Of a DNA stretch of 64,000 bases, positions 20,441-52,608 are shown piece by piece. Source of the stretch: Nemertoderma westbladi (Eukaryota; Animalia; Xenacoelomorpha). The stretch lies in assembly GCA_032718475.1 (NCBI GenBank), contig JAUCBJ010008086.1:43123-107122 (forward strand). Direction: 5' to 3'. A program made the translations under genes and the position numbers. The notes beneath the pieces were generated by a model. The model saw nothing but the letters and a program-made list of their open reading frames with translations. It was not told where the DNA came from and searched no databases. Position 1 is the stretch's first letter, and the number at the start of each line of letters is the position of its first letter.

Positions 20441-20523
20441 AACAGCTTTTACTTTTCAATACTCTAGCTACTAATTTAGGTAGGACAGTTAAACCCATAG
20501 AGAATTGCGACCGGTATATTTAT

Positions 20524-20875: not shown

Positions 20876-21129
20876 TAAAATTATGGTTATTATATGCAGT
20901 TTTTTATTATTTGGGACATTTTTTTTTTTATTTAGCTGAGCTTTTAAAACTCTCCATCTTGTTTTTTCATTTTTAACGTTGATTAACTATTATTTTACAT
21001 AAATATACTAATACAAATAATATGTATGTCAACAGTAGCTACAGTAAAGGTTGAATGGTGAAGGGAATTAGAGTTGTGGAGTGAGATTTGGGATATAATA
21101 CAATAGTGCATAGTGCATAGTGCTATTAC

Positions 21130-23110: not shown

Positions 23111-24396
23111 TGTAAAACCTTCTGTGGGATATAACTGGCCCTTTTGCTTTGCAATCCAGTTTCCCCCCAGGCGCTGGAATACTCTAAAAGGCTCTCTAAC
23201 TATATATATATTCCCCTCACCCGCAAGGTACCGTAATAGGTGTTTTAACGGACATAAACGTCATTCTTCTATATGTGTGCTTTGGCGGACATGGTAAGGC
23301 TAAAAAACCCGCAATGCACCAAATACCCTGGCCCAGCTTAGCCTTGATGATTCAGATTACGACATCTAACAGCTGGTTGCTGACATGGAAACGGCCATTG
23401 GACACATGGTTCTTTGTTTAGCTTAAGCCAATCAGAGCGATTTCTTCTGTCGATGTGGAGATATTCAGCAGATCGTGCTAGTAGTGTTCAGTCTTACTGT
23501 TTTTCCTTGATACTGTTGTGTTGTTTCTATCTAGGCCAGGAACACCGGCTCTAGAGTCAATTCGTTTCAGACTTTAGAAGAAACATTAGTAGGCTTAAGA
23601 TTATAGAGCGTATAACTGTTATCAGTCATAACTTAACATATCATATCACATATCGGTCCATATCAGTTCAACTCATAACATATCATATCTTAACCTACCG
23701 TCTTAATGCTTTTTACTGTTGTCATATTTTGTATTAGTTGGTTGAATATTATTTGGAGAACATTTATAAAGAACCCAAATTTCCCAATTTTCTTGATACA
23801 CTACAGGTTAGAGAGACGGGTTATATATAGCGATTGCGACTTATATTGTTGTGGTATGTAGTGAATTTAATGCTATTTGATAAGCACTACATGAGTCAAT
23901 TGCTGTTCGCTTTATATATGATAAAATTCATTGACGGTCGGCAACTTAGTGAGCAGTATTGTGTGTTACCGGTAGTGTGCATGATTGTGACTGATAACTA
24001 AGCATTTCCTAAAGAATGCGCCTCATACGTGAATCATAAGCCTTACCGACTTACCGTTGTGATTAGTATAAGTCATATCTCTGTTTACCTAGATAGAGCG
24101 CCACGTCCTAAAGGAACTGTTAATATTTCCCGAAAGTGAATAATATTAGTCAGAAATTATTTATTAACGATCAATCGAATAATACAGTAAGCTTACACTG
24201 CAATAATAATCTAAGCCCTCAGAATCCAGTCTCCCGGGTATATCCAGCGGGTGAATGGACGCGCACTAGGCTGGCTTCTGCTAATGTTGTGTTTATTGGT
24301 ATTAAATATTTGTCAACTTCTAAAGTCTATTTATAAACCAAAAGACATATAAATTTTGGCAGGTTAAACTGCTAAAGGTCTTCAAAAGCGCGTACA
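23111..24396 (+). repeat. 5' LTR of BEL copy 1 (1286 bp)
   Basis: Starts TGTAAAA, ends AAAGCGCGTACA; both termini and the 3' half align with LTRs 41975-43174 and 52609-53292. Confidence 0.85.
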
Positions 24397-24407
24397 ATAA
24401 CAGTTAT
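24397..24407 (+). promoter_or_regulatory. Non-tRNA primer-binding position of copy 1, complementary to LTR segment 23612-23622
   Basis: ATAACAGTTAT is the reverse complement of ATAACTGTTAT (23612-23622); no TGG follows the LTR. Confidence 0.65.
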
Positions 24408-24461
24408 TGTCTTTATTGCAGTAAGCAATAAAGTTGAAAGTACCGGTCGACCGGTAAACCT

Positions 24462-24665
24462 GAACCGGTACTTCTGTAGGTCAGTAGGCCCAACTGCCAG
24501 AACCGGTACTGCTGTAGGTCCGTAGGTCCAACTGCCAGAACCGGTACTTCTGTAGGTCAGTAGGCCCAACTGCCAGAACCGGTACTGCTGTAGGTCCGTA
24601 GGTCCAACTGCCAGAACTGGTACTTCTGTAGGTCCGTAGGCCCAACTGTCCTAACCGGTACTTCC
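24462..24665 (+). repeat. 38-bp tandem repeat in BEL leader, ~5.4 copies
   Basis: GAACCGGTACTTCTGTAGGTCAGTAGGCCCAACTGCCA units; copy 2 has only ~2.5 units at 43242-43337. Confidence 0.9.
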
Positions 24666-24845
24666 AGTATAAGTACATTAGTATTATTCGATTTTGATTA
24701 TTGTATACCGGTAGGTCTCGATATTAAATCGGGGATGCCTGGTTTTTATTGGGATTTTACTTAGGTCTATTTCTGTCAGTTTTATTTCCTAGTAGGTTAA
24801 TATTGAGCTGAAGACGTGTAAGTCTGCTCAGATTGTTCAGATAAC

Positions 24846-25415
24846 TGTAGGCCGGACTGTTGTTGGATTGTTGTTGGGTTTGGAGAGATTACGGCGTGTG
24901 TAGAGTTTGTCTGATAAAGTGCCAGTTAGTAAGTTGGGGCAGCCATAGCTGTAAGGTCAATCCCCTCTTAAAGAATAAGTCGTACTACCGTGTTAGAACG
25001 CATACTAACTAACCATTTTGGAATCTGCACATACTGTAGTTTATTTAGGCTTGACAGTATTCTGCCAGCGTTTTGGCCTGTGTTTGTTTGTGTGGTCTGT
25101 TCAGGTACCGTAATAGTTATTACTCAGATATTTTGTAGGCTGGATTGTTGTCTAGCTATTATTAGGTCTGAAGAGATTGCTGCGTGTGTAGAGTTTGTCT
25201 GATAAAGTGCCAGTTAGTAAGTTGGGGCAGCCATAGCTGTAAGGTCAATCCCCTCTTAAAGAATAAGTCGTACTACCGTGTTAGAACGCATACTAACTAA
25301 CCATTTCGGAATCTGCACATACTGTAGTTTATTTAGGCTTGGTGATAGTCTGCCAGCGTTTGGTTTGTATTTTGTTTGAGTATTCTGTACGGGTAGCGTA
25401 ATATTTATTATTCAG
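24846..25415 (+). repeat. 288-bp tandem duplication in BEL leader
   Basis: GTGTGTAGAGTTTGTCTGATAAAGTGCCAG... at 24896 and 25184; the equivalent 290-bp pair in copy 2 starts at 43567 and 43857. Confidence 0.9.
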
Positions 25416-26706
25416 AGTTTATGCGATTATTCGCAACATTCATGTCCCCAAGTTTATTCCTACAGTAATTGTGCTTGTTACACATACCGTTATAGTTAAA
25501 TTAACCCCGGTACTACACGGGCTGCTTGGCGTAGGAAAAGACTGGTGACTTTGTGCTTCGGTCACTCCAGCAGATGCCGTGGTTCTTTTAACTGTTCAAG
25601 TATATTTAACTACTAATTATTGTTGTACCAGTATTTGTACATAATTTAGGGTTTAGTGTACAGTGCTTTCCGAAGGTAATTAGTGTGTAGGCAGTATATT
25701 TGTGTTGTAAAGTGGTTAATAGGCACGTTGGATCTGGTAGTCCGTGGTAATTAACTTCCAGGTAGGAACACTCCGTGATACATAACGTAGTACCTATAGC
25801 GATACGGCTATAGGTCGTCAGGCGGTGGTATTTTCCTATCTGGACAGTGCAATATATTTACTACTACTTATTATTTTCAAATACCGTAGTACCCTGTCTG
25901 TTGTAATAACCAGAATTCTAACCCTTTGTTAGGCTGGTTTGTAGACTTCCTGTGAAATTACCCTAAAAATTTCGTACGTAATATTTTGTTGTGTTTAATT
26001 AGAGATTTAATCTCACCCGTATCGTAAGTAATTTGTAGTATTAAGTAACTTAGGTAAATTAGAATTATCTGTTTTAGTGTCCCATAGGTAGCACTTCACT
26101 GAGAGCGCACAGCTTCTGTGTAGTGACACCCCAGAAATAATAACATTTATTTCAAATATTGACAAAAAACCCATTTTAAACGGGTATATAAATATTATAA
26201 ATCAACTCAAACGATTTATAAATAGTAGGCCTGCCATACAACAACTAGGTCTCAATATCAGTTGGACTACTGCTTAAATAACGGTAATAAAGTAAGTTAA
26301 AGTAACCAAGTAACCCTAAAATATTCAGAAATTCAATTATTCTAAAATAATTGTCATACCAGTATTTACCATAGGCTTATTATATTTATTTCTATAAATT
26401 TGGGTTGAAATCATACCGGTATTCTGTAATTAATTCTAGTTCATAATTATACTTATATATACTATAAGTGTAAGCTGTATACCGGTATTCACGATAGGCC
26501 TATTATATATATATATATATTTGTGCTAAAATTATACACCGGTACTCTGTGACAAAACTAGTTTACAATACTTATATATACTATAAGTGTATACCGGTAT
26601 TCTAATACTGCAATAAATTAACGGTACTAGGCCAACGGTCATACTGAATTACTAGACTTTCTTTAACTGTAACTATAGCAGTAGACATTCAACCGTATAG
26701 CTAAGC

Positions 26707-29700
26707 ATGTCTGACACTCAGCAAAACCTGTCAGACAGTCTAATCGATACAACCATCTGTGACACAGATAGGAGTGTGGAGCGATTAAGAAAGGAGTTCA
26801 GCTCACCTCCCACTGAAAGAAAGGTCATCCCTCCAGTAGTAGTATCAGACCCTAAGCTAATCCAACACCGTAGGTCTATCATCGGCACTCGGGCCCAAGT
26901 CAAACGGAACCAGGAAGCAGCTGTCCCACAGCAGCAACAGCCTAATCAAGAAACTTGTTCCCAGCGATCCGATAGCTCCAGTAGTTCGGATACTGTCGAG
27001 CTGACCCCCGAACGCGGATTGCAGATGGCGGCTACAGCCTACTCGGATCCCCTTCTCACCCTTCCTGCCGCAGTGCTAACTACTATATTGATTGCGGTGG
27101 AGGAACATCAAGCCGATTGGGCGAGAAGTAAGCGAGCGACCCAAGATAATTATGCGGGATACGCCAGGGAAGAATTGATGTCTATTGTCGAGTCACAATG
27201 GAACTTTCCCGGACCCGGACTCCCGTTAGATTTGTCCGAGGCTACTTGGGAAGATATACACAGGATGGGAGTGACTAAAGATACAATGGACCCAGCTGTT
27301 TGGAAGAGGTCGGCAGCAGGATATGTGCAGGGATTCTTCGGCTCCTTGGAGCGATTGGAAGAACAACTGTTTCGACAACCCCAAGGACCTCAAGAGCAGG
27401 AAGAGCTGCTATATCAAGTACGCGAAAGAACCCTACGCATTAGACTAATCCTATCAGCCTTTGAGGAAACTTCCAAAAGAAGACAGGACACGTCGCTGCA
27501 GGTTGCTGTCAAAACTTGGTTCCAGCGGGTAGGTCTCAAAGTACAAGAAACGGACCAGTGGAAATCCCAGCTGTCTGAGAGACTAACCTATGAAGAACCA
27601 ACCGATGCCACCCTTTCTCAAGTGGAAGGCGAAGAGACCGCAGAGAGACCACGAACGAGAGACGCCATCGACATATATCTGTCCGACTATCAGCGATTCC
27701 TAGGAGACGAAGAGTTGAGGAGACGGCTGTCTGGACTTTCCCCTAATAGTGAAGGAACCCAGCGTGTGTTAGACTCAATCGATGCTGAAATGTTAGCTGC
27801 TAACCAAGCTGAGTTTGATGAAAAACTCCGCCTCACTAGAGTCCAAGAAGAACTAGTAAAGAAAAGACGGATAGAGGACCGAAAGGCAGCTGAAGTAACA
27901 GCGGCAATGGCAGAAGTAGAAGCAGAAAGAAAGGCAGCGGCGGCAGAAGCAGAAGCAGAAAGAAAAGTAACAGCGGCAATGGCAGAAGTAGAAGCAGAAA
28001 GAAAAGTAACAGCGGCAATGGCAGAAGTAGAAGCAGAAAGAAAGGCAGCGGCGGCAGAAGCAGAAGCAGAAAGAAAAGCAGCAAAGGCAGTGGCAGAAGC
28101 AGAACGGAGAGCCTCTGAGGAGACTACCCAACTGGAGTTGGAAAATCTGCAAGAGACGCAAGACAACATAAATAAACAGTTAACTGCTAGTCAAATGCAG
28201 ATGAACAGAAGATCTACTCCCAAACGCCAGGGATATACGTCATCGGAGGAAAGCGAAACCACCGATCCTGAAGGCGGAGGAAACAGATCTCGTCTAAGCA
28301 GGCGTAGAAAAACATCTTACCGTCACAAATTGCCTGATTTGCCCCCAGCTGCTAGAAGACAACTAGCTAGCACCGACTTAAGTAGTATAGAACCTACAGA
28401 CCAAATTATTAAGGTCAAAAAACTCCCTACTATAGTTGATGAGCCTGAAATAATTAGGCCTGTCGTTCCCAAAGTCACTCCTGTGCTAGAGACCCCTGTA
28501 CTTCCAGAGCTTAACTCTAAATTTCCTTTACACAGTACTACACTGCCTGTACCCGGTAGAACAGTCCATGAGAATATCCCTGTCCTGGAAGCTGAGAGAG
28601 AAATCAAAGATTTGTCTCCCGTCGTCCCGCATCAGCCCGCTACAATGTTGGCGACTCCCGCTTCGGCGGTCGAGTGGGTAGAGGAGGGACGGCGGGGGAT
28701 GAATCTCCTGCTCGGACAGATGCAGGAGACTGTCCACCAACTTAAGGGAACAGTAAGGGAAGGTAGGGCCGAATTGCAAGAAGTGCAGCAAAGTATCGCG
28801 CTAGAACGCGACAAATTAGTCAACATACAAAAAGGTATACCAATACCCCCTGTAAAATTGTGTCAACCTGTTAGGTCTGAAGTATTACATGCGCAAGGTG
28901 TGGAGCCTACACGCATCTATACTGCTAGTGAAGTAGAAACTCCTATAGCAAACCCTGTTAAGGGTGATTATAGACCTGTTGTTAATGATATTCCCTATAG
29001 ACCTGACAATGATCTGAGAAATTTATATACCGATAATTCGATATTAAATAACACGATGGCCCAAGAAAGCTTTACGCGTCAGATGGCTAGAACAGAAGCC
29101 CGCCAAGCGGTCAAAGTGGGAGAGATCGTCAAATTCAATGGAGATGAGATGAAATGGTTACCTTTCAACGAATATTACAAAGACAGCATACAGAACTCTG
29201 TGCTATCTACCGGAGAGAAACTTAGGTTCCTCATCAAGTGCTTGGAAGGACCTCCCAAGTTAATGGCGCTAAAGTTTATTGGACATCCAGAAGGATTAAG
29301 ACAAGTTTGGGATACATTAAACATCAGGTATGGTAACAAGGATAACATAGCTAAGTATTTGTATGCAAAATTAGTAGCCCCCCGAAACTTCCTTAGTAGT
29401 GGTATTATAGAGTTTTCCGATGAGATTCAGGAGATCTGTAGACAATTGGACTGGTTAGGTAAGTCTCATGAATATCAGAGTTCCATGGTTATTGGAGCAG
29501 TAGTCTCTACTTTACCAAAGGGTGGGGTATGTACGCGTTGGGACAAGAAAGTGTTGTACATGAATGAACAACAACGACGAAGCCCTACCATGGCTGATCT
29601 CATGTCCTTCTTAGATGGTGAAGTAAAACTACAACTCATCAAGCAGTCCAGAGAGAAAATATCGGAAAATAAGGTAAGTGAGAAACCCGCTTCTAAGAGA

Positions 29701-32700
29701 AGAGTAACACCGGTGTGTTACACTGACGACGGCGAAAGCCAAGCTTCTCAAGAAGAGGACAGCGGGAAAGACACTGATAGATCTTACTACGTTGAAAAAA
29801 CCTCAAAAGACGTAAGTAAATACAAGGCTCGAAACAACGATAGGAGAGAACAGGTTGCCAAGACCCCTCCTCAGTCTCCTAACAGAATGCACCGAAGAAA
29901 GCCCGAAGAAAGAACGAGAGTGCATCAGGTTACCCAAGGTAAAGTGAGTAACATAAAACCCAACTGTGCGCTGTGCGAAGGTACCCACCGTTTGAGTGCG
30001 TGTGCTGAATTTCTAAAGAAATCCCTTGTAGACAGACGTGCAGTCGTGTGGGATAAGCGGTTATGCTATAATTGCCTCAGACCAGGACACCAACGGCGAA
30101 CCTGTTACTCCGACATAAAGTGTGCAAAGTGTAGCGCGAAACATCACATTTTGTTACACAGTGAGTTCGACCGAGACAACCCGGGTCAGGTAAGTGAGCC
30201 CGAACTACATGTCCAATTCAGTGATGTAAACGACACTGATCAAGAATCTGAGATGGAAGGATTCTATACTGACGAATTCTCCGACGCCAACGAATCCTGT
30301 TATCTAATCAATACCGCAGTGTATCGAGCACTTACTTATGAAAAGGACACCAACAATGAGTTCCCCCCAACTACCTTTGACAGACAACCATCTTGGAAAG
30401 CTCCAGCTTCCAATGTAGGAATCAGAGAATTTCCTGTAGTGCAGGTAAGAGTTCACGGTCTTAACAACAGTTACATAGTGAACGCCCTCCTTGACTCCGG
30501 CAGTACAGGAACATTCATCGATCAAGAACTAGCCGAAGATATCTTTGCTGGACAACCCAAATTCCGGACTAAATTGAATATGTCAGGAATTATGCAGGTT
30601 TGGAAATCTACCCTAACGGCAGATTACTATGTAGGTGTATTGTCCACCCCCCAGGATAAGTTAGGAGCACAAGGTATAAGGTCGGTAAAAATGGTGGCTA
30701 TAAAGAACTTCGCTACTACTCAAGCAGACCTTTATAATTGGGACGAGGATGAAAGCATCCAACATCTTAAGATACCTCGATTCCAGACAGATTATCCTGG
30801 AGTGCAAATACTCAACGGCCAAAACGCGCATGAGGCGCTCGAGACATTGGAGAAACGGCCTGCTCAACCGCAGCCACTGCAAACCTATGCGGTAAGAACT
30901 AGAGTAGGTTGGTACTTTACTGGCCCTTCCCGCAGGACTCTCGAAGAGAGAATGCCACAAGAACGAACATCCCAAGTAAATGAATGGGAAGTGGAGAGCA
31001 GTGAGGTGGACGAACTAACTGAGGAAACACCATACTCTTCAGATAATGACGACATCTACCAACTCTTCGATGAAGAGAACACAATCGACCTACTTACAGA
31101 AAACCAAACTTGGAAAAATCAGGTGAACCTATGTCAACTGATTCGCCCATCGGAACCCATCGCTTACAATGACGAACTAAACGATGAGATAGAGCGCGAC
31201 AACGCTAGAACTCGGGACGAACTAGCCGTACGATTCTTTACTCAAGAACTGGTAGAGCCCAATTCATATGATAAGGCCCTATCGATAGAAGAAGAAAGAG
31301 CCAAGCAAATCCAGGAAACAACTACACGTTTTTTAAAGGACCAAGGTAGATATGAAATCGGCCTGCTATTTCGAAAACGAGAACCTAGATTTATAAATAA
31401 CAGACCCTTGGCAGAGAAAAGAATCGCTCAATTACATCGACGCCTTACGGCTAATGCTCCAGCTAAAGAAATGTACCAAACTCAGCTGAAGAAATTTATA
31501 ACAAAGGGATACGCGGAGCGAGGACCGGAAGGAACACCAGTGACTGAGAGAACGTATTACTTAACACATCATTACGTTCCCAAACCCGGTAAACCCCACG
31601 AAGTACGAGTCGTATTCGATGGCTCCGCGCTATATATGGGCCAATCCCTCAATTCCAAGTTGTTACCAGGACCCAACTTACTCCAATCTTTGTTGGGAAT
31701 ACTTTTAAGATTAAGACAATATTCCATCGCGTTCGCCTCCGATATAGAAGGAATGTTCTTACAAGTCAAGGCGCTAGATAGAGATAGAGACAGCCTGAGA
31801 TTTCTGTGGTGGCCTGAAGGAGACCTCAATCAGAAACCGGTAGAGTACTGGATGACCATCCAGGCTTTTGGAATCATATCAAGCCCTTCCAACGCCTGCT
31901 CCGTGGTGCGAACCACTGCGAATGACAACCGAGACTCCTTCTCAAAAGAGGTGATAGACAACATCAAACGGAATATATACATGGACGACAATTTAAGGTC
32001 CCTTCCATCAGTAGAAGAAGCCATAGATGTCGCGAAAGGAACGGTAGAGTGTTTGAAAAGAGGTGGATTTCGACTGACGAAATTCACCAGCAACTCCCGT
32101 GAGTTTCTGGAAGCGATACCGGTAGAAGACCGAGGAGCGAAAGACCTAGACTTAATAAAGGACGATCTTCCTGAAACCAAGACGCTTGGCTTGAAGTGGG
32201 ACACTGAAAGAGACATCCTGTTTTTTCAGTTAAAACAGCGAGATAATCCAGTTCGGACCAAACGGATTTGTTTAAGTATCCTGAGCACTTATTTCGACCC
32301 ATTGGGATTTATAAGCCCAGTTATATTGATTGCTCGGAGTTTAGTACAACAAATGTGGCTTGAAAACCACTCATGGGACGATCCGCTTAAGGGAGAATTG
32401 TTAAAGAAATGGATGAAATGGGAAGATTCTCTACCTGCCATCGAGAACTTTATAATTTCCCGTGCATATTTTGGCCATGTTCTTCCTACGTATTCCTATC
32501 AACTCCATGTGTTTGGAGACGCCAGCGACATGGGAATAGGTATAGTAGCATATCTGCGAGTCGAAACCCCGGATGGAATCAAAGTCGCCTTGGTTACCTC
32601 TAAGGCATTGATTAACAACAAGTTAAAGGTTCCTCGAGCGGAGTTAAAGGCGGCTTTATACGCTACAGCCATCGGCCGGAACGTAACGGAACAAATCGAC

Positions 32701-33510
32701 TATCCACTGGAGAAAACGGTTTATTGGACCGACGCTTTACTCGTGTTGGAGTATCTAACCAATGAAGTCTGTCAGTTCAGCGTTTTTGTTACTAACAGGG
32801 TAGCTATTATTCTTAGTCGCACAAAGATAGATCAATGGAGACATTGCCCTGGTACGATTACTCCAGCCGATATCGCCTCACGGGGAGCAACTCCACAGGA
32901 ACTGATAGATACTCCAGACTGGTTGGGTGGACCCGACTTCCTGAGCAAGGAAGAGGATGAATGGCCTCCTCACCTTACTACGGCGGAGATTAGACAAGCC
33001 AAGGGAGCGGAGACAGTCAAACCTAAAACCCGGGCGAGTAAATCGAAGTTATCTAAACCGACTATCGATCTATCTGTATTACATACTTCCGGGAATGATG
33101 CTTCGGATCCACAATCCCTCAACACAAATAAGTCTGTTGTGGAAATTAGAGATAGAGATTGGAAATCTGGAATACCAGACGTCTCGCAAGGAATCTCACC
33201 CATGCTGCAGAGAGCAATGCATCACTACAGTTCCTGGAATCAGCTCTGTAAAGCCGTCACATATTTAAGACGATGTTTTCATCATCACTACTCCAGGACG
33301 AAGACCATTAGTGATACCGCTCCATTGACATCTGCACAAGTTCATGTTATTAAAAATTTACCCAAATATAAGACATCGGATCGTTTTCTAAAGGAGAAAA
33401 TTAGTCACCAGGAGCATGAAGAAACCAATAAGCAGATACTGAGACTCCTGCAATGCTATGAGGATTCCGAAAAGTATTTCCTGTTGTTGAGAAATCCGCA
33501 GATGGCTTAA
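26707..33510 (+). CDS. gag-pol: BEL/Pao gag-pol polyprotein (gag, zinc knuckles, aspartic protease, RT, RNase H)
   Basis: KFNGD...W..F gag core; CALC..HRLSAC / CYNCL..GH....C / CAKC..KHHILLH BEL knuckles; LLDSGST protease; RVVFDGS, SLN..L.PGPNL, DIEGMFLQV, YMDD; LHVFGDAS, PRAELKAA, YWTD, FV.NRV, WRHCPG..PADIASRG. Confidence 0.95.
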   Translation: MSDTQQNLSDSLIDTTICDTDRSVERLRKEFSSPPTERKVIPPVVVSDPKLIQHRRSIIGTRAQVKRNQEAAVPQQQQPNQETCSQRSDSSSSSDTVELTPERGLQMAATAYSDPLLTLPAAVLTTILIAVEEHQADWARSKRATQDNYAGYAREELMSIVESQWNFPGPGLPLDLSEATWEDIHRMGVTKDTMDPAVWKRSAAGYVQGFFGSLERLEEQLFRQPQGPQEQEELLYQVRERTLRIRLILSAFEETSKRRQDTSLQVAVKTWFQRVGLKVQETDQWKSQLSERLTYEEPTDATLSQVEGEETAERPRTRDAIDIYLSDYQRFLGDEELRRRLSGLSPNSEGTQRVLDSIDAEMLAANQAEFDEKLRLTRVQEELVKKRRIEDRKAAEVTAAMAEVEAERKAAAAEAEAERKVTAAMAEVEAERKVTAAMAEVEAERKAAAAEAEAERKAAKAVAEAERRASEETTQLELENLQETQDNINKQLTASQMQMNRRSTPKRQGYTSSEESETTDPEGGGNRSRLSRRRKTSYRHKLPDLPPAARRQLASTDLSSIEPTDQIIKVKKLPTIVDEPEIIRPVVPKVTPVLETPVLPELNSKFPLHSTTLPVPGRTVHENIPVLEAEREIKDLSPVVPHQPATMLATPASAVEWVEEGRRGMNLLLGQMQETVHQLKGTVREGRAELQEVQQSIALERDKLVNIQKGIPIPPVKLCQPVRSEVLHAQGVEPTRIYTASEVETPIANPVKGDYRPVVNDIPYRPDNDLRNLYTDNSILNNTMAQESFTRQMARTEARQAVKVGEIVKFNGDEMKWLPFNEYYKDSIQNSVLSTGEKLRFLIKCLEGPPKLMALKFIGHPEGLRQVWDTLNIRYGNKDNIAKYLYAKLVAPRNFLSSGIIEFSDEIQEICRQLDWLGKSHEYQSSMVIGAVVSTLPKGGVCTRWDKKVLYMNEQQRRSPTMADLMSFLDGEVKLQLIKQSREKISENKVSEKPASKRRVTPVCYTDDGESQASQEEDSGKDTDRSYYVEKTSKDVSKYKARNNDRREQVAKTPPQSPNRMHRRKPEERTRVHQVTQGKVSNIKPNCALCEGTHRLSACAEFLKKSLVDRRAVVWDKRLCYNCLRPGHQRRTCYSDIKCAKCSAKHHILLHSEFDRDNPGQVSEPELHVQFSDVNDTDQESEMEGFYTDEFSDANESCYLINTAVYRALTYEKDTNNEFPPTTFDRQPSWKAPASNVGIREFPVVQVRVHGLNNSYIVNALLDSGSTGTFIDQELAEDIFAGQPKFRTKLNMSGIMQVWKSTLTADYYVGVLSTPQDKLGAQGIRSVKMVAIKNFATTQADLYNWDEDESIQHLKIPRFQTDYPGVQILNGQNAHEALETLEKRPAQPQPLQTYAVRTRVGWYFTGPSRRTLEERMPQERTSQVNEWEVESSEVDELTEETPYSSDNDDIYQLFDEENTIDLLTENQTWKNQVNLCQLIRPSEPIAYNDELNDEIERDNARTRDELAVRFFTQELVEPNSYDKALSIEEERAKQIQETTTRFLKDQGRYEIGLLFRKREPRFINNRPLAEKRIAQLHRRLTANAPAKEMYQTQLKKFITKGYAERGPEGTPVTERTYYLTHHYVPKPGKPHEVRVVFDGSALYMGQSLNSKLLPGPNLLQSLLGILLRLRQYSIAFASDIEGMFLQVKALDRDRDSLRFLWWPEGDLNQKPVEYWMTIQAFGIISSPSNACSVVRTTANDNRDSFSKEVIDNIKRNIYMDDNLRSLPSVEEAIDVAKGTVECLKRGGFRLTKFTSNSREFLEAIPVEDRGAKDLDLIKDDLPETKTLGLKWDTERDILFFQLKQRDNPVRTKRICLSILSTYFDPLGFISPVILIARSLVQQMWLENHSWDDPLKGELLKKWMKWEDSLPAIENFIISRAYFGHVLPTYSYQLHVFGDASDMGIGIVAYLRVETPDGIKVALVTSKALINNKLKVPRAELKAALYATAIGRNVTEQIDYPLEKTVYWTDALLVLEYLTNEVCQFSVFVTNRVAIILSRTKIDQWRHCPGTITPADIASRGATPQELIDTPDWLGGPDFLSKEEDEWPPHLTTAEIRQAKGAETVKPKTRASKSKLSKPTIDLSVLHTSGNDASDPQSLNTNKSVVEIRDRDWKSGIPDVSQGISPMLQRAMHHYSSWNQLCKAVTYLRRCFHHHYSRTKTISDTAPLTSAQVHVIKNLPKYKTSDRFLKEKISHQEHEETNKQILRLLQCYEDSEKYFLLLRNPQMA
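27883..28110 (+). repeat. Coding Ala/Glu-rich helical repeat in gag (AEAERKVTAAMAEVE / AEAERKAAAA)
   Basis: GCAGAAG/GCGGCA-rich tandem units; a different expansion (AEAKAAA) occurs in copy 2 at ~45710-45910. Confidence 0.85.
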
Positions 33511-33530
33511 GGGATCGATTCTCGAGCACA

Positions 33531-34862
33531 ATGATAGATGGGCTAATACGTGTTGGAGGAAGACTCACCAATGCGCCCTTATCCTTTGACACTAAATTCC
33601 CCATACTCATTAGAAATCTTGAAGTACAAATCAAGATGATTGTAGATGTTCACAGCAAACTTTATCATGCTGGTAGAGAACGAGTTCTTAGCGAAATTCG
33701 AACTCGCTATTATTTTGATAAACCCCGTAGAGCTCTGAACCAAGTTCTTAGGAACTGCATACCCTGTAGGAAAGCATTCAGTAGGCCTTTAACACAGCGA
33801 GAGGCAGAATTACCTAGGGAACGAGTAAGCTTCTATGAACCACCTTTTACTAACACTGGTGTAGATTTATTTGGCCCTATTGAAGTATATCGTGCTAGGA
33901 CTATAGTCAAGAGATGGTGTGTCATCTTCGTATGCATGACTTGTAGAGCCATCCATCTCGATATGGTGAACGATCTATCTACCAACAGCTTTGTCTTAAG
34001 TTTACGCCGACAGATCGCTCGCTTCGGGACGAGTAATACCATGAGATCGGATAAGGGAACGAACTTCATTGGTGCCAACAACGAAATACAGGCTTACGTG
34101 AAGGACTGGAACCAAAGACAGGTGGACGATCAGCTAAGGATAACAGCGTCTAGCTGGACCTTCAACGCCGCCGACGCCCCTTGGTGGGGAGGAAGTTGGG
34201 AGAGATTAATTAGAAGTGTCAAGACCGCATTTCACTTTATAGTGCCATGCCGCGCGTATCTCACCGACGAACTTTTGCGGACGTTAATGGAGGAAATAGC
34301 TGCCTATCTCAACGAGAGACCGCTTATGCCAGTCTCATCGAGTCCCGATTCCCTGGAAGCGCTAACACCCGCGCACTTCCTACTGAAGAAACCTGTAGCC
34401 ATGCTCCCACGATCGGAGATTGCCGACGGAGACGAATACTGCCGTCGAACTTGGCAACTTATGCAGTTGCTATCCCGTCGTTTCGCTGACCATTTCGAGA
34501 AACATTATCTGCCCACGCTACAACTTCGAACTAAGTGGTTTGCGCAGCAAGAAAACGTCAGCGCCGGAGATATGGTGCTTATTGTAGATCCAGACCTCCC
34601 ACGTAAACGGTGGCAGACAGGTCGTATCATCGAGACCCACATCTCGGATGATGGTTTAGTACGCTCGGTAGAACTCATCGTCATGCGGCGTAACTTCAAG
34701 AAGCCAGGCATAATCTTTGAGACGCAACAACTCAATCGCCCAGTTGGTCGTTTATGTTTACTGGAAAGAGACAGAGAACTCTCCGGGAACTATGGAAGGC
34801 AAGACACTCTTCCCACGACCACCTCCCTAATTCCTCAAACATCTAGGGACTCCCTAACGTGA
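33531..34862 (+). CDS. BEL/Pao integrase, continuing gag-pol across a frameshift near 33450-33510
   Basis: DGLIRVGGRL, H...H...CxxC, PPF..TGVD.FGP, F.C...RAIHL, SDKGTNF.GA, PWWGG.WERLIRSVK, LN.RPL, LTPAHFL, DGLVRSV. Confidence 0.93.
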   Translation: MIDGLIRVGGRLTNAPLSFDTKFPILIRNLEVQIKMIVDVHSKLYHAGRERVLSEIRTRYYFDKPRRALNQVLRNCIPCRKAFSRPLTQREAELPRERVSFYEPPFTNTGVDLFGPIEVYRARTIVKRWCVIFVCMTCRAIHLDMVNDLSTNSFVLSLRRQIARFGTSNTMRSDKGTNFIGANNEIQAYVKDWNQRQVDDQLRITASSWTFNAADAPWWGGSWERLIRSVKTAFHFIVPCRAYLTDELLRTLMEEIAAYLNERPLMPVSSSPDSLEALTPAHFLLKKPVAMLPRSEIADGDEYCRRTWQLMQLLSRRFADHFEKHYLPTLQLRTKWFAQQENVSAGDMVLIVDPDLPRKRWQTGRIIETHISDDGLVRSVELIVMRRNFKKPGIIFETQQLNRPVGRLCLLERDRELSGNYGRQDTLPTTTSLIPQTSRDSLT

Positions 34863-35404
34863 TACGTCTGGAGTGGGTGTATGACTATATTATTTTACCT
34901 ATTTTATTATATTTTTATATGCGAACGTTATTATGTACTTTATTATAATCGTTTTTATTCAATTTTATTTAGTAGAATGTTATTTTAGTGATAATTTAGT
35001 AGATTAGTGCAATGTATTAGTGTTTATTACGTACGTAATTACTTATAATATATATTTAGTGCGACGGCGAGAAAATAATTATTTTTCTCTTTCCTTACTG
35101 TCCGTATCATATTGTAAATACGTGACTACAGTAAGATGAAATGTCCGTACTTATTAAAGTACAATAAAGCCACTACTATATTCAAGTATTATTGGTAGGC
35201 AGAGTATTAGGAATGCAAAGTTCAGATCCTCGTGTCTCAGCTAAACCAAGCTCTGGGTAGACCTTGGAAACGACTTGCCTCTTCACACTGACATTGCTTT
35301 GTGCGATATTGCTCTTCTACCTTATATTAAATAATACATATAGTAGCGTGATGTCCCTCTAACAGTAGCGTAAAACGCAAATAAATCTGTTAAACCTTTT
35401 GACC

Positions 35405-35700
35405 ATCTGTAATTCTAGTCGATTAAGATATCGCGGCACCCACGATATACTTGAAAGACAAATTCTAGAATCAGTGGTTAACGTCCCCAGACAAGTTCTA
35501 GAATAAATCGGTGCCCATCTTAAATATTAATTTAATATTTAGTAAAAATCTGTAAAATTCAGGTCCTTTGAAATTTCTAGTCAATTAAGATATCGCAGCA
35601 CTTACCGATACTCTTGAAAGACAATTTTATAGAATTAAGGATCCCATGTCCCCAGACCTGCTCTGGAATCAAATTGTGTCAATTTTAATATTAAATAATA
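35405..35700 (+). repeat. Diverged ~165-bp tandem duplication in the pol-ORF3 spacer
   Basis: TTCTAGTC.ATTAAGATATCGC.GCAC...TTGAAAGACAA...GTCCCCAGAC at ~35413 and ~35575; both units also present in copy 2 (~50095, ~50273). Confidence 0.75.
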
Positions 35701-36305
35701 AAATTCACGGGAATAAATTCAAATTCATATTTTAAATGAATTTCATAAATTGTCATTTTGTACAATTTATAACATTCCCAAAATTCCATTAATTATTAGA
35801 TCATGGGAGCGGAGATTCATCCTATTGAGTGTATTAGAGTGCGAGAATCTCCAACATATAGTCAATAGCCGATAAAATTAATAAAATCATGCATAAAGAG
35901 GATTTTGACAATTAAAGAATTATTATTAAATAGCATCCCAGATCTGTATGCATGAGAATTACCCTAATTCTGCTGCTAGCATTCCATAATGTCACCATAG
36001 CAACACCCACGCTAGAATTAGAAGCAAGTTAAGAGAACAATAGAAAGCTTGTCACATTGCATAGCATAGAGAATACATAGCACACTGTTAGTATCCAAGG
36101 ATACACAGTAATAACGTGACATTCTGGAAGGCACTGACTAATGGACAAATGGCCTGTATGTGTATAATTGGTGACAGTTGTGTGGAATTTGTGCGTTTAT
36201 AGGTGAATGTAACTGCTAAAGTATGTTTACAGTAGCTAGTCGCAATTGTAAAAGTAGCCCAACTCTCCTATAGAAAGAACCTAAGTGGATCCAAGCCTTT
36301 GGGAC

Positions 36306-36408
36306 GGACAGTGGAGTGACTTGTGCCGGTTATCGTTGTCGTGCTGTTGCTACATGTTGGCGTAAACACCGCGACGACGGTACATCGGCGCTGAGAATCC
36401 CACTGTCC
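36306..36408 (+). promoter_or_regulatory. Conserved long RNA hairpin ~80 nt upstream of ORF3
   Basis: GGACAGTGG/CCACTGTCC, GTGCCG/CGGCGC and ATCGTTGTCG/CGACGACGGT stems; pairing retained with different bases in copy 2 (51013-51118). Confidence 0.6.
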
Positions 36409-36490
36409 AGGGGCAAAGAGAAGTAGGCAGCGACGCCCGCTCGCCTAAAATATAAACTTATTTTGATATTAATAAACTCAGATAGCAGAT

Positions 36491-39400
36491 ATGACGGAGT
36501 TGATAGAAGATGATCTTGGTATTAGGGAGCGATATACTCTACCTTTACAAGCATTTGTGGATAGCTTAATACGCGGTGAAGCCGATCCAACCATTACGGA
36601 GGACGATGGTCGTTATATCGAACCGCCGATGTCCCAAGAGCAACTTGCGCGTGAATTGGACTATCGAAAATTCACCACTCGCTATACGAATCGTAATGGT
36701 ACGTATATGGACTTCTTAACTACCGGCCATCCTATCGATTTACATGATATGGACGATGTAGATACAGAGAGGGAAATGGTTCTATTTAAATATCATACCC
36801 AGCGGAGTCGTAACGATAAACCGAGAATAGATCACGAAAATTCTATTCGTAATAGACTGGAAAGAGAAAACGTTGAAGAACCGGATAAACGCATCGATTT
36901 CAACGAATACCTAGAATTTTTGAGAGAAACCTATCTCAACATCGCTAGTCAGCAGAACTTAGAGACTCGATATCCTCAAGGTATACATCACGACCCTGTG
37001 GTAGAACTCAAACGGCTCTATTTCACTATGATGTATCTTACCGCCGATCGTCCACTACCTGTTATCCCGGATAGTTTTGAACAAATGGAAGAATACTGCA
37101 AAACTGGAGAACGATCACCCGCGTTTCCTCTACAGGACGTACGTCTTTGGTATTATTGTGACGAATGCCCTAGACCCAACCAACAAACTGAAAGACATAA
37201 ACATCCGCGAAGACGTTGCGCTAAACACAGCTTTACGCGTTACACTTACGGGAGTTTCGAGCGAAACCTGTTCGACGTACCACCTACGATTGCTCGTCTT
37301 AAACGATCACTGAATAAACCCATGATCAGAGTTCCGGAATACTCGGTCAGGCCTCCCCATTCCCTAGTGAGACCTCAAACTCTTGATCCTAACAGTATCA
37401 CTGATCCTCCCGAACTATATTCCCTGTTCAAAGACTTAGTGTTACCCGAACAAATAATCGGTGGTGCTCCGGTAGTGGGTTCGTTAGACATTCGCCCATC
37501 CTACTTAGCCGGATTGGGACGCGGGCAGCTAATATCGCCCTTTGATCCTTACAATCGTCCAGGATTAAACCCGATGCAACCCGCCACGGAAGTCGAGGAG
37601 AGCGTTATAAGAAACGCTTTAGACGCCATTCGACAGAAAATCGGAAAGGGAACACAAGATTGTTTAGAGAAACGTAAATTACAACAACAAGTCCAATCGG
37701 TGAAGGAGTTAGCCTTGCCACAGTTCGATAGAGAAATCCAAAACCTCGAGGAAGATATCAAGCTTGGACGCACGTATTCTCTACAAGAATTTTTAGATGA
37801 ACGCTTACAGAGACAAGCGGAAGAAAATCTAATCGAGGAGAAACACACGAAACTGGAAGAGAGAGAAGAAGCCGCTTTAGCCCAACCTGAAGCTCAAATC
37901 CTCATGACGGACCTCTACTCTAAAACCGTTCGTCATCCCTCGATGATTCCACATTTCGGAGACAAGCTCTTCGCTACGATACAGCCTCAACCGGTTGATA
38001 TCAGTACAGGATCGCAAAATCTTATCGCTGATGCCCCTATGTTACAGCGTCCGCCGATCGAGGCCGCTCGTGTTGACGGTATACTCGTTGAACCTCCGGA
38101 CAATCGAGCGGATCTTGTCCGTCGTATGGTACACGATGTCAACATACGCGCTAGACCTTTACAGAACTCGTTTTATGGGATTAAAGAGCACCCTTATTAC
38201 GTTAATCTGACTCAATATTATATGGTAAAACCAGAAGACCCGACGCATAACTTAAAGTTTCTACCACTAATCAATCCTCTAGACATTGTCGAACTCGAAC
38301 AATTGCAGAAACATCTGGATCAGTTAGTAAAGGTAAACTCATTTAGAAAACCATATAACATTTCTCGAATCGAGAAAGATATAGAACCTCCTTATAATCT
38401 CGATGGATTTATTAAAACTCGATTAGTCCATTGGAATCTAGATGTATTATTTGAAGAAGAGAAAATACAAAGATATGGAAATGTGGAGACGTATACCACT
38501 CGGCACATGAAGTATAGTGATCTCCCTGACGCTAACCAATGCGCCACCTTGTGGCATCCAGTAGGGATGACTCTAGATAACGCCACCAAGGAGTGGAATG
38601 AAACTCTTAATGTTATTGAGATGTATGGAGTTGTCACCTACGACAATGAAGGTAGCGTTCCGGTCGGAGAACTAGGAACTACGCGCATGATCCACATACG
38701 CGGATTAGCTGGTTCTACCCACGTGTTTACTCGAGCGTGTTCCGACGTGATTGATTATTCCTTTGAAACTCTCACCGAAACACAAAAGAATCTCCGACAT
38801 GGACAATTCGAACTCGCGCAGCGTTACGTTATTGACACCGAACGCAAACCGGCCATGGGCATCGATGGATCGATGTTACCCCAACCCGTACTCGAGATGT
38901 TGTTCAACGAAAGAATCCTTAAAATCGGCTCAGCTGTTTATGGAGATCTCCAAAACGACTTTCGGAATATGGAGAACATTCCATACCCTTTCGTTGATAC
39001 TCAGCTGATTGCTCCCTGGGCAGAAGGTCGAGGTTTCTTCCGCACCATGTATGCTAATACGTCTAGCAACATTACAAAGGTGCAACGAACTTCCATCGGA
39101 CATCTTGCCTTTCAGGAATACGGATGGAATTTCAAAGTCGGAAATCCCATTAACTATCAACAAGTATACGGAGATCATTATTCCCGATTATACTTTGATG
39201 GACCATTAACCGCACCTGGCGCCGTGTATAGCTTCATGAGTGTTCCACTCCATCCTTCCTTAGCTATCTACACGATTTTTGAAAACACCGCACTTGCCGG
39301 TTGGCTAGCCGATGTGTGCAGTCGTACTATACGCGCCCATCCGTTAATACTTGGGACCAAACTCGCTAAGCTAGATGAGCATAATAAATTCATCCGCTTC

Positions 39401-40738
39401 GAATGTTTCCGGCGATTTTTAACCCCGTTCCGCAACGTGGATAGCCAATTTAAAGACCGCGCTTTGACCAAGCTCAGCCTAAGAAACTCAGCTGCAGAGA
39501 AGTTGGATAGCGCTGGATTCGCCATTTTCCAAGAGATTTGTATATCGAACTTGCACTCCTCTGTTATACAAAGACCTCGAATCCCCACAGGTTATTCTGT
39601 CGTGGAAATTCAGACAATAGGTCCACCTGAAGAGACAGACACGCCCACCTCAGCTATGCACTTGGAAGACGAGCCAATATGTCTAGAATCTGAGGAGATT
39701 CAGCCTATCGCGCCCCGGAACAGCGACAACGACTACATCATAGAATGGTATCAAGGTCCACAGTGTCTCACTGCGTACGATTATCGACATGCCAACTATG
39801 TTTCTAGGCAACGTTGTCGGTTATGCGCATCGAGAGACCATGATACGCCCATGGACACAAACGTCCGCTGTTCCTATTTCCAAGAACAACCGACTATGGA
39901 AATTTATTGCGCCTATTGCAGACTCAATAACTTGCATATTTTTGCGGTTTGCCCTCAATTTATGACTCAATGTCACCATTGTCAACTAAAGGGACACGCC
40001 AGTTTCGATTGCCCTTTTAATCACGATTTGGAAAGCGTAGATGAAATGATCACACTACGTTACATCAGAGCTTGGGAAGCGAACGCTGATTTACATTGTG
40101 ATTCGCGCCATCGCTATTATCCCGGACGCGCTTACGAAGGAGTTTATGCGTTCCATCCTTATCTATTCGCTTCTGTCGAACAGAAATCACGCATATCGAG
40201 TTACGAACTACTGAAGCGCGTCGGAGAATGTATTTCAACCAAGTTCGTACGTAAATTTCTCAGGAGTGTTAATCCTAGCGACCTTCATTCCTATAACTTA
40301 ATCAATTACATCCGTCAGGATCCGGACTATGGAGACTTATTTGTTAACTCACACCCAGAGTTACAGGAAGTATATCGGCGGCCTTACGAATACCGAGCCC
40401 GCGAACGCGAGTTGGAAAGAACCATTAAACCCCGGAGGTTTCTAACTGCCTATGGTCCACCCACGGCCCTCGTTCAGACCACTCGTAAAGGACCCGTAAG
40501 AGCGGCTGTCTTAAAACGAGCTCTCAAAGCCGTTAGACCCCTCTCCCCCGACGTTGATGTCAATCAACCCGGTACTTCGACTGGCGGATACACCGACCAT
40601 AATCCTACACCCTCTGATGCAATCATATTGCACCTTTCACCCAGGAGTTATAGCCCTCCTTGTAAAGTGGCTCGCCCCAAAGAGAAAAGGACTCTGGCTA
40701 GCTTTAAAAAACTGCGTAAACGCCGTCCGCGCTGTTAG
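36491..40738 (+). CDS. Extra retrotransposon ORF3 (1415 aa): N-terminal CxxC..CxxH, coiled coil, DEDDy 3'-5' exonuclease-like domain, C-terminal Cys/His knuckles, basic tail
   Basis: VVTYDNEG (ExoI), LPQPVLEMLFNERILKIGSAVYGDL (ExoII), FVDTQ, SIGHLAFQEYG, PLTAPGAVYSFMS (ExoIII-like) resemble WRN/EXD/RNase D domains; CRLC...H, CAYC....H...C, CHHCQLKGHASFDC; KKLRKRRPR. A remnant lies inside the LTRs of copy 2. Confidence 0.8.
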   Translation: MTELIEDDLGIRERYTLPLQAFVDSLIRGEADPTITEDDGRYIEPPMSQEQLARELDYRKFTTRYTNRNGTYMDFLTTGHPIDLHDMDDVDTEREMVLFKYHTQRSRNDKPRIDHENSIRNRLERENVEEPDKRIDFNEYLEFLRETYLNIASQQNLETRYPQGIHHDPVVELKRLYFTMMYLTADRPLPVIPDSFEQMEEYCKTGERSPAFPLQDVRLWYYCDECPRPNQQTERHKHPRRRCAKHSFTRYTYGSFERNLFDVPPTIARLKRSLNKPMIRVPEYSVRPPHSLVRPQTLDPNSITDPPELYSLFKDLVLPEQIIGGAPVVGSLDIRPSYLAGLGRGQLISPFDPYNRPGLNPMQPATEVEESVIRNALDAIRQKIGKGTQDCLEKRKLQQQVQSVKELALPQFDREIQNLEEDIKLGRTYSLQEFLDERLQRQAEENLIEEKHTKLEEREEAALAQPEAQILMTDLYSKTVRHPSMIPHFGDKLFATIQPQPVDISTGSQNLIADAPMLQRPPIEAARVDGILVEPPDNRADLVRRMVHDVNIRARPLQNSFYGIKEHPYYVNLTQYYMVKPEDPTHNLKFLPLINPLDIVELEQLQKHLDQLVKVNSFRKPYNISRIEKDIEPPYNLDGFIKTRLVHWNLDVLFEEEKIQRYGNVETYTTRHMKYSDLPDANQCATLWHPVGMTLDNATKEWNETLNVIEMYGVVTYDNEGSVPVGELGTTRMIHIRGLAGSTHVFTRACSDVIDYSFETLTETQKNLRHGQFELAQRYVIDTERKPAMGIDGSMLPQPVLEMLFNERILKIGSAVYGDLQNDFRNMENIPYPFVDTQLIAPWAEGRGFFRTMYANTSSNITKVQRTSIGHLAFQEYGWNFKVGNPINYQQVYGDHYSRLYFDGPLTAPGAVYSFMSVPLHPSLAIYTIFENTALAGWLADVCSRTIRAHPLILGTKLAKLDEHNKFIRFECFRRFLTPFRNVDSQFKDRALTKLSLRNSAAEKLDSAGFAIFQEICISNLHSSVIQRPRIPTGYSVVEIQTIGPPEETDTPTSAMHLEDEPICLESEEIQPIAPRNSDNDYIIEWYQGPQCLTAYDYRHANYVSRQRCRLCASRDHDTPMDTNVRCSYFQEQPTMEIYCAYCRLNNLHIFAVCPQFMTQCHHCQLKGHASFDCPFNHDLESVDEMITLRYIRAWEANADLHCDSRHRYYPGRAYEGVYAFHPYLFASVEQKSRISSYELLKRVGECISTKFVRKFLRSVNPSDLHSYNLINYIRQDPDYGDLFVNSHPELQEVYRRPYEYRARERELERTIKPRRFLTAYGPPTALVQTTRKGPVRAAVLKRALKAVRPLSPDVDVNQPGTSTGGYTDHNPTPSDAIILHLSPRSYSPPCKVARPKEKRTLASFKKLRKRRPRC

Positions 40739-41298
40739 CTTATCCAATTCCGCTAACACAAACCCATAGAGTGAGCCATAAAGCGATATTGGGAGCACGA
40801 GGTTGATTACCAATCAACCTCGTGTCAGCCCAGTAAACGGGGACAATAGGCCCCAAAGGAGACACACACAATAAGGGTCAGGGGTTACTCCCCTGACAAG
40901 AGAGAGAATAGCTGGGGTGAACGGGAAACACACCAGGGAAGGTGAAGGGGCGAGAAGTGGGATATTAGCCAATGGGGGGACAGCATCGACTAGGTACACT
41001 AATATGGCCAACCGTGCAGTATATTACCTGTTGGTGCTCCCCTATTCAGTCAGTTATCTCAGTCGGTCAGTACAGTCAGGTAGTACGGTGACAGTTAGGA
41101 CCGTCACCGCCGTCATCACATTACCGGTACCAGTGCAGCAGTATTCAGTGCTATCTGCTATTGTACCTATACACTATATGTTATCTCAATTTATATCCTT
41201 AACAACAACGTCAGAACAACAACTCTTTTCATCCACACGGCGGGGACGCGTACTTAACCAATACCGGATAAACCGGGATCCTCTCGGATCCCGTCACA
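40733..41298 (+). repeat. 5' LTR (566 bp) of a third LTR element inserted in the last codons of ORF3
   Basis: TGTTAGC..ATCCAATTCCGC ... GATCCCGTCACA; both ends match the solo LTR at 62666-63286; insertion point is where copy 1 and copy 2 ORF3 diverge. Confidence 0.8.
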
Positions 41299-41343
41299 GT
41301 CCTAACTCTAGGCCTGCCGAACTGTAACAGACCAAAGATAAAG

Positions 41344-41974
41344 ATGAGTCGAGAGAAAGGAACGACACCGCCGCGGACCCCGGACGACGATCTAACGATC
41401 CGCGAGGCCACGGCGAGACGATACGAACCCACGACGCCGGTCGATGCTACGCCGACCACGTCGACGCAGGTTGACGCCACGTCGATAACGAGCAATACGG
41501 CGAACCAAGTTGTGGGGGGTCGTCTACCAGGAGAGAGCGAGTCGAGTAGAGGAGACGAGTCGGGAGAAGAAGAGAAAGACGAGTCGACGCGGAGCGAGGG
41601 TCGACATACCGATGTCACCGGCCAGCCACAGGCCGAGGACGACGAACGGTCCACCGGAACGGCGACGGTGGGGCCGTCGGTACGACGTCGGACCCGGAGA
41701 GACAGAGGAGAGGTCGGCGACGAGGACGTCGGGGTTTCTGATCAACTTCGACGGGCCTACAACGCGACCCGGGAACTACTAAAGGAGGCCAAGGAGGGGG
41801 CGAAGATAGACGAGGTGAGACTGAGAAAGCGACTAGGTGAGTCGAACAGATATTTTGATCACCTAGTGTGTTCTGGACAGAGAGAACTAGCAGAGTTGAG
41901 GGCGTGGGGAGTTGCCTTCGAACTGTTTAAACTATGGGAATGTGGGGGTATGGAACCTAGTGTAGTGTACATAG
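41344..41974 (+). CDS. N-terminal part of the first (gag-like) ORF of the third LTR element, truncated by BEL copy 2
   Basis: ATG 45 nt after the LTR; Thr/Glu/Arg-rich disordered sequence; the stop codon is supplied by the inserted LTR at 41975. Confidence 0.55.
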
Positions 41975-43174
41975 TGTAAAAGCTTTTGTGGGATAACTGA
42001 TTCGTTTGCCTTGTTGGCCAGTTCCCCCCCAGTCGCTAAGAATACTCTCAAAGTGATCTATAGCTAAAAATAGTGCAAGTTACCAGCTTATTGGCTGATT
42101 TGCTGTACGCAGGCATCTGGGCTCTGTTTAATCGGCCAACAAGCCTAGGGAGGTTGCGTCATAGCCTTGTTTTTGTATCTCCCAATAGAATTTGAGTTAG
42201 CCTTGATTTTGACCTATCACAGAGCTACTGAACTGAAATTTTCCTATCTCACTGCTCTTTCTCTGTGTTGAACGGGAGCTTCGTGGAATAAGGGAGTTGG
42301 TATCCTCGTACAGAGCAGTAGTCACGAGTTTTTCAAAGCCACGAAAGAACGGCTTTTTAGTGTTTTGTGCTTTCTGCTTTTTAGCTCAACACTAGTAGGT
42401 TTAATTATAAGGACATATATCCTTTAACTGCAATTTCGTAATCACTGCATACTGCGGTACTGCATACACTGCATACTGTGTAACACTGTGCATACTTTTA
42501 TATTGTTATACTGCTATTTACTGTCAGTTCTTCATAATATGGTTGATGAATTATTATATTTGGAATAACGAGAAATAACCCCGAAAACCCAATATTCTTG
42601 ATATACCGAAGGTAAGAGAGAAAGGTTACCAATAACGATTGTGACTTATGTTAAAGTGGTTTGAAGTGAATCTAATGTTATTTGGTAGACCCTACATGAG
42701 TCAGTCTGTGTTCCTTTTATATGTGATTAAAATCAGTGAAGATTGGCAGATTAGTGTGCAGTATTGTGCAGCATTGCGTATGAGCGAGTCTGTTAAAGAA
42801 GCAATTCCTAAAGAATGCGCCATATATGTGAATTATAATTAAGCCATATCGTTGTGAGTAGTTTAAGTCATAACTCTGTTTCTATAGATAAAGCGCCACG
42901 TCCTAAAGGAACTGTTAATATTCCCGAAGGTGAATAATATTGTCAGAGATTATATAATACTGTCAGTCGAATAATACATTAGGCTTACATAGCAACAAAA
43001 TTAAACCGTCGAACCCAATCTCCCGGGAATATCCAGCGGGTGAATGGTCGCGCACGGATTGGTTTCGACTAGTGTAGTGAATCAAATACTTGTCATAGGC
43101 TAAAAAGCGATTTAATATCTAGAAGACATCTTAATTTGGCGGGTTAAACTGCCAAAGGTCTGAAAGCGCGAACA
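41975..43174 (+). repeat. 5' LTR of BEL copy 2 (1200 bp)
   Basis: TGTAAAAGC...AAAGCGCGAACA; direct repeat of 52609-53292. Confidence 0.93.
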
Positions 43175-43186
43175 TTAAAGGATATA
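43175..43186 (+). promoter_or_regulatory. Non-tRNA primer-binding position of copy 2, complementary to LTR segment 42416-42427
   Basis: TTAAAGGATATA is the reverse complement of TATATCCTTTAA (42416-42427). Confidence 0.7.
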
Positions 43187-52530: not shown

Positions 52531-52608
52531 CTGTTTAGAGTATTTTTATATTTTAGAAACTGTGCTTTTGTATATTTTATAGACTTAAATCCCATTTTCT
52601 GGGAGCGG

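Follow-up and report, generated by a model that had tools for sequence, protein, structure and literature searches.

The two BEL/Pao retrotransposon copies carried by a 64,000-nucleotide (nt) stretch of Nemertoderma westbladi DNA (contig JAUCBJ010008086.1, positions 43,123 to 107,122 of the forward strand; hereafter the window, numbered from its first letter) probably start reverse transcription as Tf1 does, independently of transfer RNA (tRNA), with a 5' part of their own transcript as the minus-strand primer. The copies were recognised by self-comparison and Pfam matches. The reading is based on the absence of TGG behind the long terminal repeat (LTR), a perfect complement of the primer-binding site (PBS) within the LTR, the geometry of the resulting duplex, compensated changes between the copies, and the same geometry in relatives. 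The LTRs, sites and partners concerned are as follows.

23111..24396, forward strand: 5' LTR of copy 1, 1286 nt, TGT...ACA, without a partner 3' LTR inside the window
23612..23622, forward strand: predicted self-primer (PBS partner) of copy 1, exact reverse complement of 24397-24407
24397..24407, forward strand: PBS of copy 1, non-tRNA, ATAACAGTTAT, offset 0 from the LTR end
41975..43174, forward strand: 5' LTR of copy 2, 1200 nt
42416..42427, forward strand: predicted self-primer of copy 2, exact reverse complement of 43175-43186
43175..43186, forward strand: PBS of copy 2, non-tRNA, TTAAAGGATATA, offset 0 from the LTR end

As the initial annotation had noted, TGG is absent behind both 5' LTRs (from -30 to +60 of each junction), and with it the 18-nt PBS for tRNA-Arg or tRNA-Gly that the ICTV, the international committee for virus taxonomy, gives for such elements. 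ARAGORN found no tRNA over the whole window, Rfam gave no match over 23000-53400, and no PBS match of the splice-junction type described below was found in the window copies. Directly after the terminal CA of each 5' LTR there begins a perfect and maximal match to the LTR itself, of 11 nt in copy 1 (with 23612-23622) and 12 nt in copy 2 (with 42416-42427). The 3' ends of the two partners align with each other in the LTR alignment, and in both copies the duplex sets the partner 3' end at offset 0, on the terminal CA, so the homologous position and the geometry claimed in that annotation both hold. This is the Tf1-type arrangement, in which the PBS is complementary to the element's own LTR and the partner 3' end falls at the LTR end. 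A C lies directly 3' of the partner in both copies. The LTR end was set in copy 2 by its 3' LTR, and in copy 1 by homology and by contigs of run X5 that depart from the stretch at 24397. Contigs in three runs skip sequence from 23623-23624, immediately 3' of the copy 1 partner, which fits a boundary there and fits adjacent short repeats too.

The two sites had also been described as different in sequence, with both halves changed together, beside a leader that is identical between the copies. The leader identity is confirmed (24416-24440 equals 43196-43220), and positions 1, 5, 6 and 8 have changed on both sides of the duplex, but the sites remain identical at 7/11 positions. Copy 2 has gained an extra pair at position 12, and crossed pairs, in which the PBS of one copy is set against the LTR of the other, reach only 6 and 5 nt. 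Matches as good arose by chance in 29/20000 (copy 1) and 8/20000 (copy 2) Markov-resampled LTRs, and at 8/16286 and 1/9376 internal pseudo-sites, respectively.

Relatives were gathered with a profile built from 33 proteins; of the 536 stretches that matched it, the best 80 gave 79 metagenome loci in 55 families. The elements sampled are distantly related, the nearest database proteins being 37-44% identical in the reverse transcriptase (RT) region, with one exception at 31%. At 19 loci a pair of repeats extended to a candidate LTR end, and 11 families were scored from these; L001, L063 and L071 (same families) and L079 (internal duplication) were omitted, as were L030, L035, L057 and L066 (end unclear), whose families were scored later. 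TGG is absent in all 11 families with cleanly pair-defined LTR ends, and each has a self-complement of 10-15 nt located 0-4 nt past the LTR (against 0-1/308 pseudo-sites per family in the null). Non-cognate pairings reached 10 nt in 7/156 cases, six of them within three families with near-identical sites. The covariation between PBS and own LTR that had been proposed as a check is thus found throughout the pair-defined set. A further 16 families fit without exception (12 spliced, 4 contiguous, in the sense given below; null 0-5/308), in a set that is partly circular, since its LTR ends were picked by inspection or after a blind scan; L059, L035, L057 and L049 also fit, bringing the families with inspected ends to 20. 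In the remaining 23/55 families the contig lacks a usable LTR and junction pair, as judged by eye. A C directly 3' of the partner was seen in 18/26 cases under automated placement, at least one of which is misplaced. The putative self-priming feature spans distantly related BEL/Pao elements among those sampled, and the initial suggestion of a tRNA-independent, self-priming BEL lineage stands as the best reading, except that the lineage is not a small one. One sampled locus (L032:1-18507) contains three head-to-tail BEL units with shared LTRs, 100% identical, either a tandem array or a collapsed circular assembly.

For most relatives, splicing of an intron out of the LTR is predicted to create the partner. 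The complement runs across a GT-AG junction inside the LTR in 9/11 pair-defined families, while in the other 2/11 it is contiguous as in the window copies; the predicted introns of the pair-defined spliced type measure 67-186 nt, the downstream exon supplies 5-7 nt, and canonical splice sites stand at both predicted intron ends. In one clade, where exon 1 of L049 and L047 differs from that of L058 and L021 by a T-A/A-T swap, the PBS shows the matching exchange. The 3' LTR of L042, which belongs to the same clade and whose own PBS lies outside the contig, has the exon-exon join contiguous in its DNA, and a precise intron-less join of this kind is expected after reverse transcription of spliced RNA, so that the contiguous type matches loss of the LTR intron in at least this relative. 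One clade (L009, L010, L013, L046, L059, L060 and L073) has a near-constant PBS, GTTCGAATTT, and junction, with a predicted intron of 139 to 371 nt (the L013 donor lies outside the contig). Contiguous forms are scattered among spliced ones in a quick RT tree (69 rows, two families omitted, careful search unfinished); for example, the contiguous L026 is sister to the spliced L029, with which it shares a homologous site. Judging from these predicted junctions, the partner of spliced relatives could be a plain 11-nt 5' end only with a tiny exon 1. We consider it likely that a large branch of BEL/Pao self-primes, most members through a splice-built primer that would gate replication, and that the window family is a divergent, oversized and intron-less member with a primer-masking stem and an exonuclease-like gene.

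Under the proposed mechanism, the transcript would start 5' of the partner, possibly at the following motif, which lies about 25 nt before it and resembles an initiator.

23586..23590, forward strand: TTAGT initiator-like motif, candidate transcription start about 25 nt 5' of the partner; CTAGT at 42392 in copy 2

The primer's position deep in the LTR agrees with an RNA that begins upstream and contains it internally. The initial annotation had proposed that the primer may be released by cleavage or be the trimmed 3' end of an R-region RNA, but trimming is not required on this view. In the particle, the partner would pair with the PBS against a competing stem, at a predicted cost of 3-7 kcal/mol; by analogy with Tf1, RNase H would then cut on the 3' side of the duplex, ahead of the C next to the partner, and leave a 3'-OH at the LTR end. 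RT would copy about 750-775 nt to the cut and jump to the 3' R, which would serve as template for recopying the primer region and any intron and would need to stay unspliced at least sometimes. Every step after the pairing is inferred. Retroviral plus-strand synthesis copies the tRNA primer; were the self-primer copied in the same way, the PBS would track its partner automatically, and complete compensation would follow.

A number of observations weigh against self-priming as set out here, several of them from RNA folding. The following predicted stems overlap the partners.

23618..23999, forward strand: long irregular stem, predicted, its base overlapping the 3' end of the copy 1 primer; z -1.9
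42422..42798, forward strand: long stem, predicted, at a position homologous to the copy 1 stem; z -3.9

When folded freely, the 3' half of the partner pairs with 23930-23999 in copy 1 or 42740-42798 in copy 2, and the primer-PBS pairs have probability 0 in both copies when the predicted R-U5-PBS RNA is folded without constraint. A two-sequence consensus fold did not recover the primer duplex, a different LTR segment of copy 2 is predicted to be a stronger binder of the PBS region than the partner, and an apparent second helix at positions 15-19 did no better than shifted registers and was discarded. The predicted strong-stop DNA measures 747-774 nt vs about 50-360 nt in relatives. Neither window LTR contains AATAAA, and ATTAAA is not conserved between them, so R could not be located in the window copies. 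The first base of the window PBS is A or T vs G in 20/24 relatives. In run X3, 42427 shows A>T at about half depth, with no counterpart PBS change among the listed variants; a loose end in the same run suggests a third partner variant. Among the relatives, L066 is ambiguous, with a 12-nt contiguous match yet only 5 nt at the end picked, and L052, from the 23 families without a usable pair, shows a CA with TGG after it where no LTR end is defined. The window element itself has an uncertain position in the quick RT tree, where its branch is long (1.85), so that it may have lost an intron or always lacked one.

Forcing the primer duplex costs 6.5 kcal/mol in copy 1 and 2.9 kcal/mol in copy 2, with most of the stem retained, and in these models a switch from stem to duplex is plausible. 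The specificity of the long stem is imperfect: one crossed pairing scored equal to the cognate one. A PBS-like decoy 3' of the primer was considered as well and is not general among relatives.

Other explanations of the complementarity have been weighed. The primer may come from an RNA 3' end or act in trans, through cleavage, through 3'-5' trimming to the duplex (possibly by the exonuclease-like product of the extra open reading frame (ORF) of copy 1) or as a second spliced transcript; this we regard as unlikely. The resemblance of the extra ORF to 3'-5' exonucleases, which scored very high, would suit trimming, an initiator-like TCAGTC lies directly 3' of the copy 1 partner, and priming in trans would ease the demand that the intron of spliced relatives persist in the 3' copy. 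However, a comparable long second ORF between pol and the 3' LTR was not seen in two-LTR relatives, which have the same geometry nonetheless, so the extra ORF is not needed for it, and many relatives carry AATAAA or ATTAAA 3' of the partner, so that their RNA would not end there.

It is more improbable still that the pairing is a real helix serving packaging, dimerisation or translation control while the primer is something different, for example an internal piece of a tRNA or some other small RNA. In its favour, a competing stem overlaps the partner in both copies, but about 30 families have differing sites that each match their own LTR only, 0-6 nt from its end, and the junction offers neither TGG nor any other candidate site. 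Chance, a local palindrome or a one-off templated inversion can be given almost no weight. The copy 1 site is near-palindromic in AT-rich DNA, and the palindrome pointed out in the initial annotation is real (a 7-bp hairpin of -3.3 kcal/mol); moreover, 3/308 pseudo-sites reach the copy 1 length when spliced junctions and offsets are permitted. The palindrome nevertheless does not explain copy 2, two different sequences at homologous positions with low chance rates speak against coincidence, and recurrence in 11/11 independent families contradicts it. Self-priming from a 5' part of the transcript is the reading we retain.

The remaining features of the two copies and of the sequence between them are listed here.

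24416..24440 (identical to 43196-43220), forward strand: leader block, splice-site-like GCAG/GTAAGC, with AATAAA
26701..33510, forward strand: gag-pol ORF of copy 1, DUF1759 and Pao peptidase A17 by Pfam, RT motifs by eye
33462..34862, forward strand: integrase part of copy 1 in a different frame, Integrase_H2C2 and DUF5641
36476..40738, forward strand: extra ORF of copy 1 at the env position, 1420 amino acids (aa), with a candidate 3'-5' exonuclease-like region at about aa 720-930 and CCHC knuckles
40733..~41974-41979, forward strand: unrelated LTR-like sequence with a gag-like ORF between copies 1 and 2, starting TGTTAG
45367..49542, forward strand: gag-protease ORF of copy 2
52599..52608, forward strand: polypurine tract of copy 2, CTGGGAGCGG, upstream of its 3' LTR
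52609..53292, forward strand: 3' LTR of copy 2, 98-100% identical to its 5' LTR

Copy 1 is more than 17 kb long, has a leader of 2.3 kb between 5' LTR and gag-pol, and ends at 40732, where it is interrupted by the unrelated LTR-like sequence; its pol is broken at 33462..34862, the integrase part being out of frame. The LTR-like neighbour starting at 40733 has no Pfam match, no evident TGG and no self-complement of at least 8 nt. In copy 2 the RT, integrase and extra-ORF regions are mostly deleted, and the 3' LTR lacks about 515 nt (the equivalent of 42342-42856), the primer partner included; its flanks CATAG/CATAT form a target duplication that matches at 4/5 positions only. The 5' LTRs of the two copies are identical in 853/1158 aligned columns (74%). 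Assignment to BEL/Pao follows the protein content, the textbook tRNA PBS being absent: DUF1759, Peptidase_A17, Integrase_H2C2 and DUF5641 occur in BEL-type order in copy 1 by Pfam, PF05380 is present in 120/120 listed of 918 homologues, and TG...CA LTRs and a polypurine tract are both present. Pol is of the BEL/Pao and not the Ty3/gypsy type, which places the elements outside the Tf1/sushi group. Among named proteins, the nearest belong to echinoderms, cnidarians, molluscs, a tunicate, a fish and a pseudoscorpion. The window family is abundant (9980 contigs of run X1 fall on the copy 1 LTR), as contigs from 4 + 3 runs also show, though these are too short for linking partner with PBS; no GT-AG joint appeared among the joints listed for them, which counts neither for nor against splicing. 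Exact LTR and leader patterns gave 0 matches in viral and metagenome contigs, and a protein scan of viral contigs gave none either.

Residues 640-960 of the extra ORF resemble DNA_pol_A_exo1 (PF01612) clusters by features. Only one homologue was found among 1.8 billion representatives (E 1.5e-6), sharing the exonuclease-like region and the CCHC knuckles and itself giving a weak PF01612 match (E 0.2). The ORF has no exonuclease match in Pfam or PDB, a word-index search gave no match, and its structure model has a predicted local distance difference test score of 31.

In the leader, the identical block can be read as an acceptor (pyrimidines, CAG) and a donor (GTAAGC) with AATAAA after them, and may act as a major splice site or in the control of polyadenylation. 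The copy 1 leader contains tandem repeats of 38 nt (24459-24664) and 288 nt (24837-25416); the 288-nt repeat pair is common to both copies, and the 38-nt array of copy 2 is shorter. Beyond copy 2, 53293-58400 holds a GC-rich 4.6-kb segment with 21/30-nt repeats and the same AT-rich microsatellite on each side, within which a long minus-strand ORF (53561-57061) has no Pfam match. Elsewhere in the window, 793-1773, 10749-11657 and 16582-22199 contain a fibrinogen-C gene fragment, a gypsy-type fragment (DUF7041), non-LTR RT fragments and a copia-type SH3 fragment.

If the reading is true, the replication mode stated for an ICTV family would be overturned for many of its members, and BEL/Pao would join gypsy and copia as self-priming groups. 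Retrotransposition would be tied to host splicing, with one intron treated differently in its 5' and 3' copies, and the PBS-dependent annotation of such elements would need revision. Cer7, a BEL element of Caenorhabditis elegans, has reportedly been proposed to encode its own primer, a tRNA-like one used with a tRNA-type PBS. A literature search, with subscription journals, Repbase/GyDB entries and supplements outside its reach, returned no report of BEL self-priming or of a splice-built primer, and term look-up in the accessible portions of five papers found no discussion of the BEL priming mechanism (PMC554778, PMC3118150, PMC8220671, PMC6238403, PMC8556966).

The Belpaoviridae are described by the ICTV as tRNA-primed, with an 18-nt PBS for tRNA-Arg/Gly, genomes of 4.2-10 kb and LTRs of 0.2-1.2 kb (PMC8742986). 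The window elements resemble them in having LTRs, a single gag-pol with BEL-specific domains and a polypurine tract (PMC8742986), whereas copy 1 lacks a tRNA PBS, is longer than 17 kb and has its exonuclease-like ORF in the place of env-like genes. Self-priming is listed for the Tf1/sushi group, for Tcn1 and for TAR copia elements of plants (PMC6317226, PMC7175516, PMC3601003). Plant Tcn1 (gypsy) and TAR, Houba and Osr-1 (copia) are alike in that self-priming was predicted for them from a complement of at least 10 bp located 0-5 bp past the LTR (PMC6317226); they belong to other superfamilies and hosts, and the available text does not mention a splice-built primer for them. The closest parallel is with Tf1/Tf2 and the Tf1/sushi chromoviruses (Metaviridae), which likewise lack a tRNA PBS and have an 11-12-nt complement between PBS and LTR with the partner 3' end at the LTR end, according to the parts available (PMC7175516, PMC6317226). 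In Tf1 the first 11 bases pair with the PBS, and the RNase H cut falls between base 11 and base 12 (PMC7175516). Unlike Tf1, a Ty3/gypsy element whose primer is the first 11 nt, the window elements are BEL/Pao with a probably internal primer some 750 nt away from the PBS; among their BEL/Pao relatives, most have a primer that spans a predicted splice junction.

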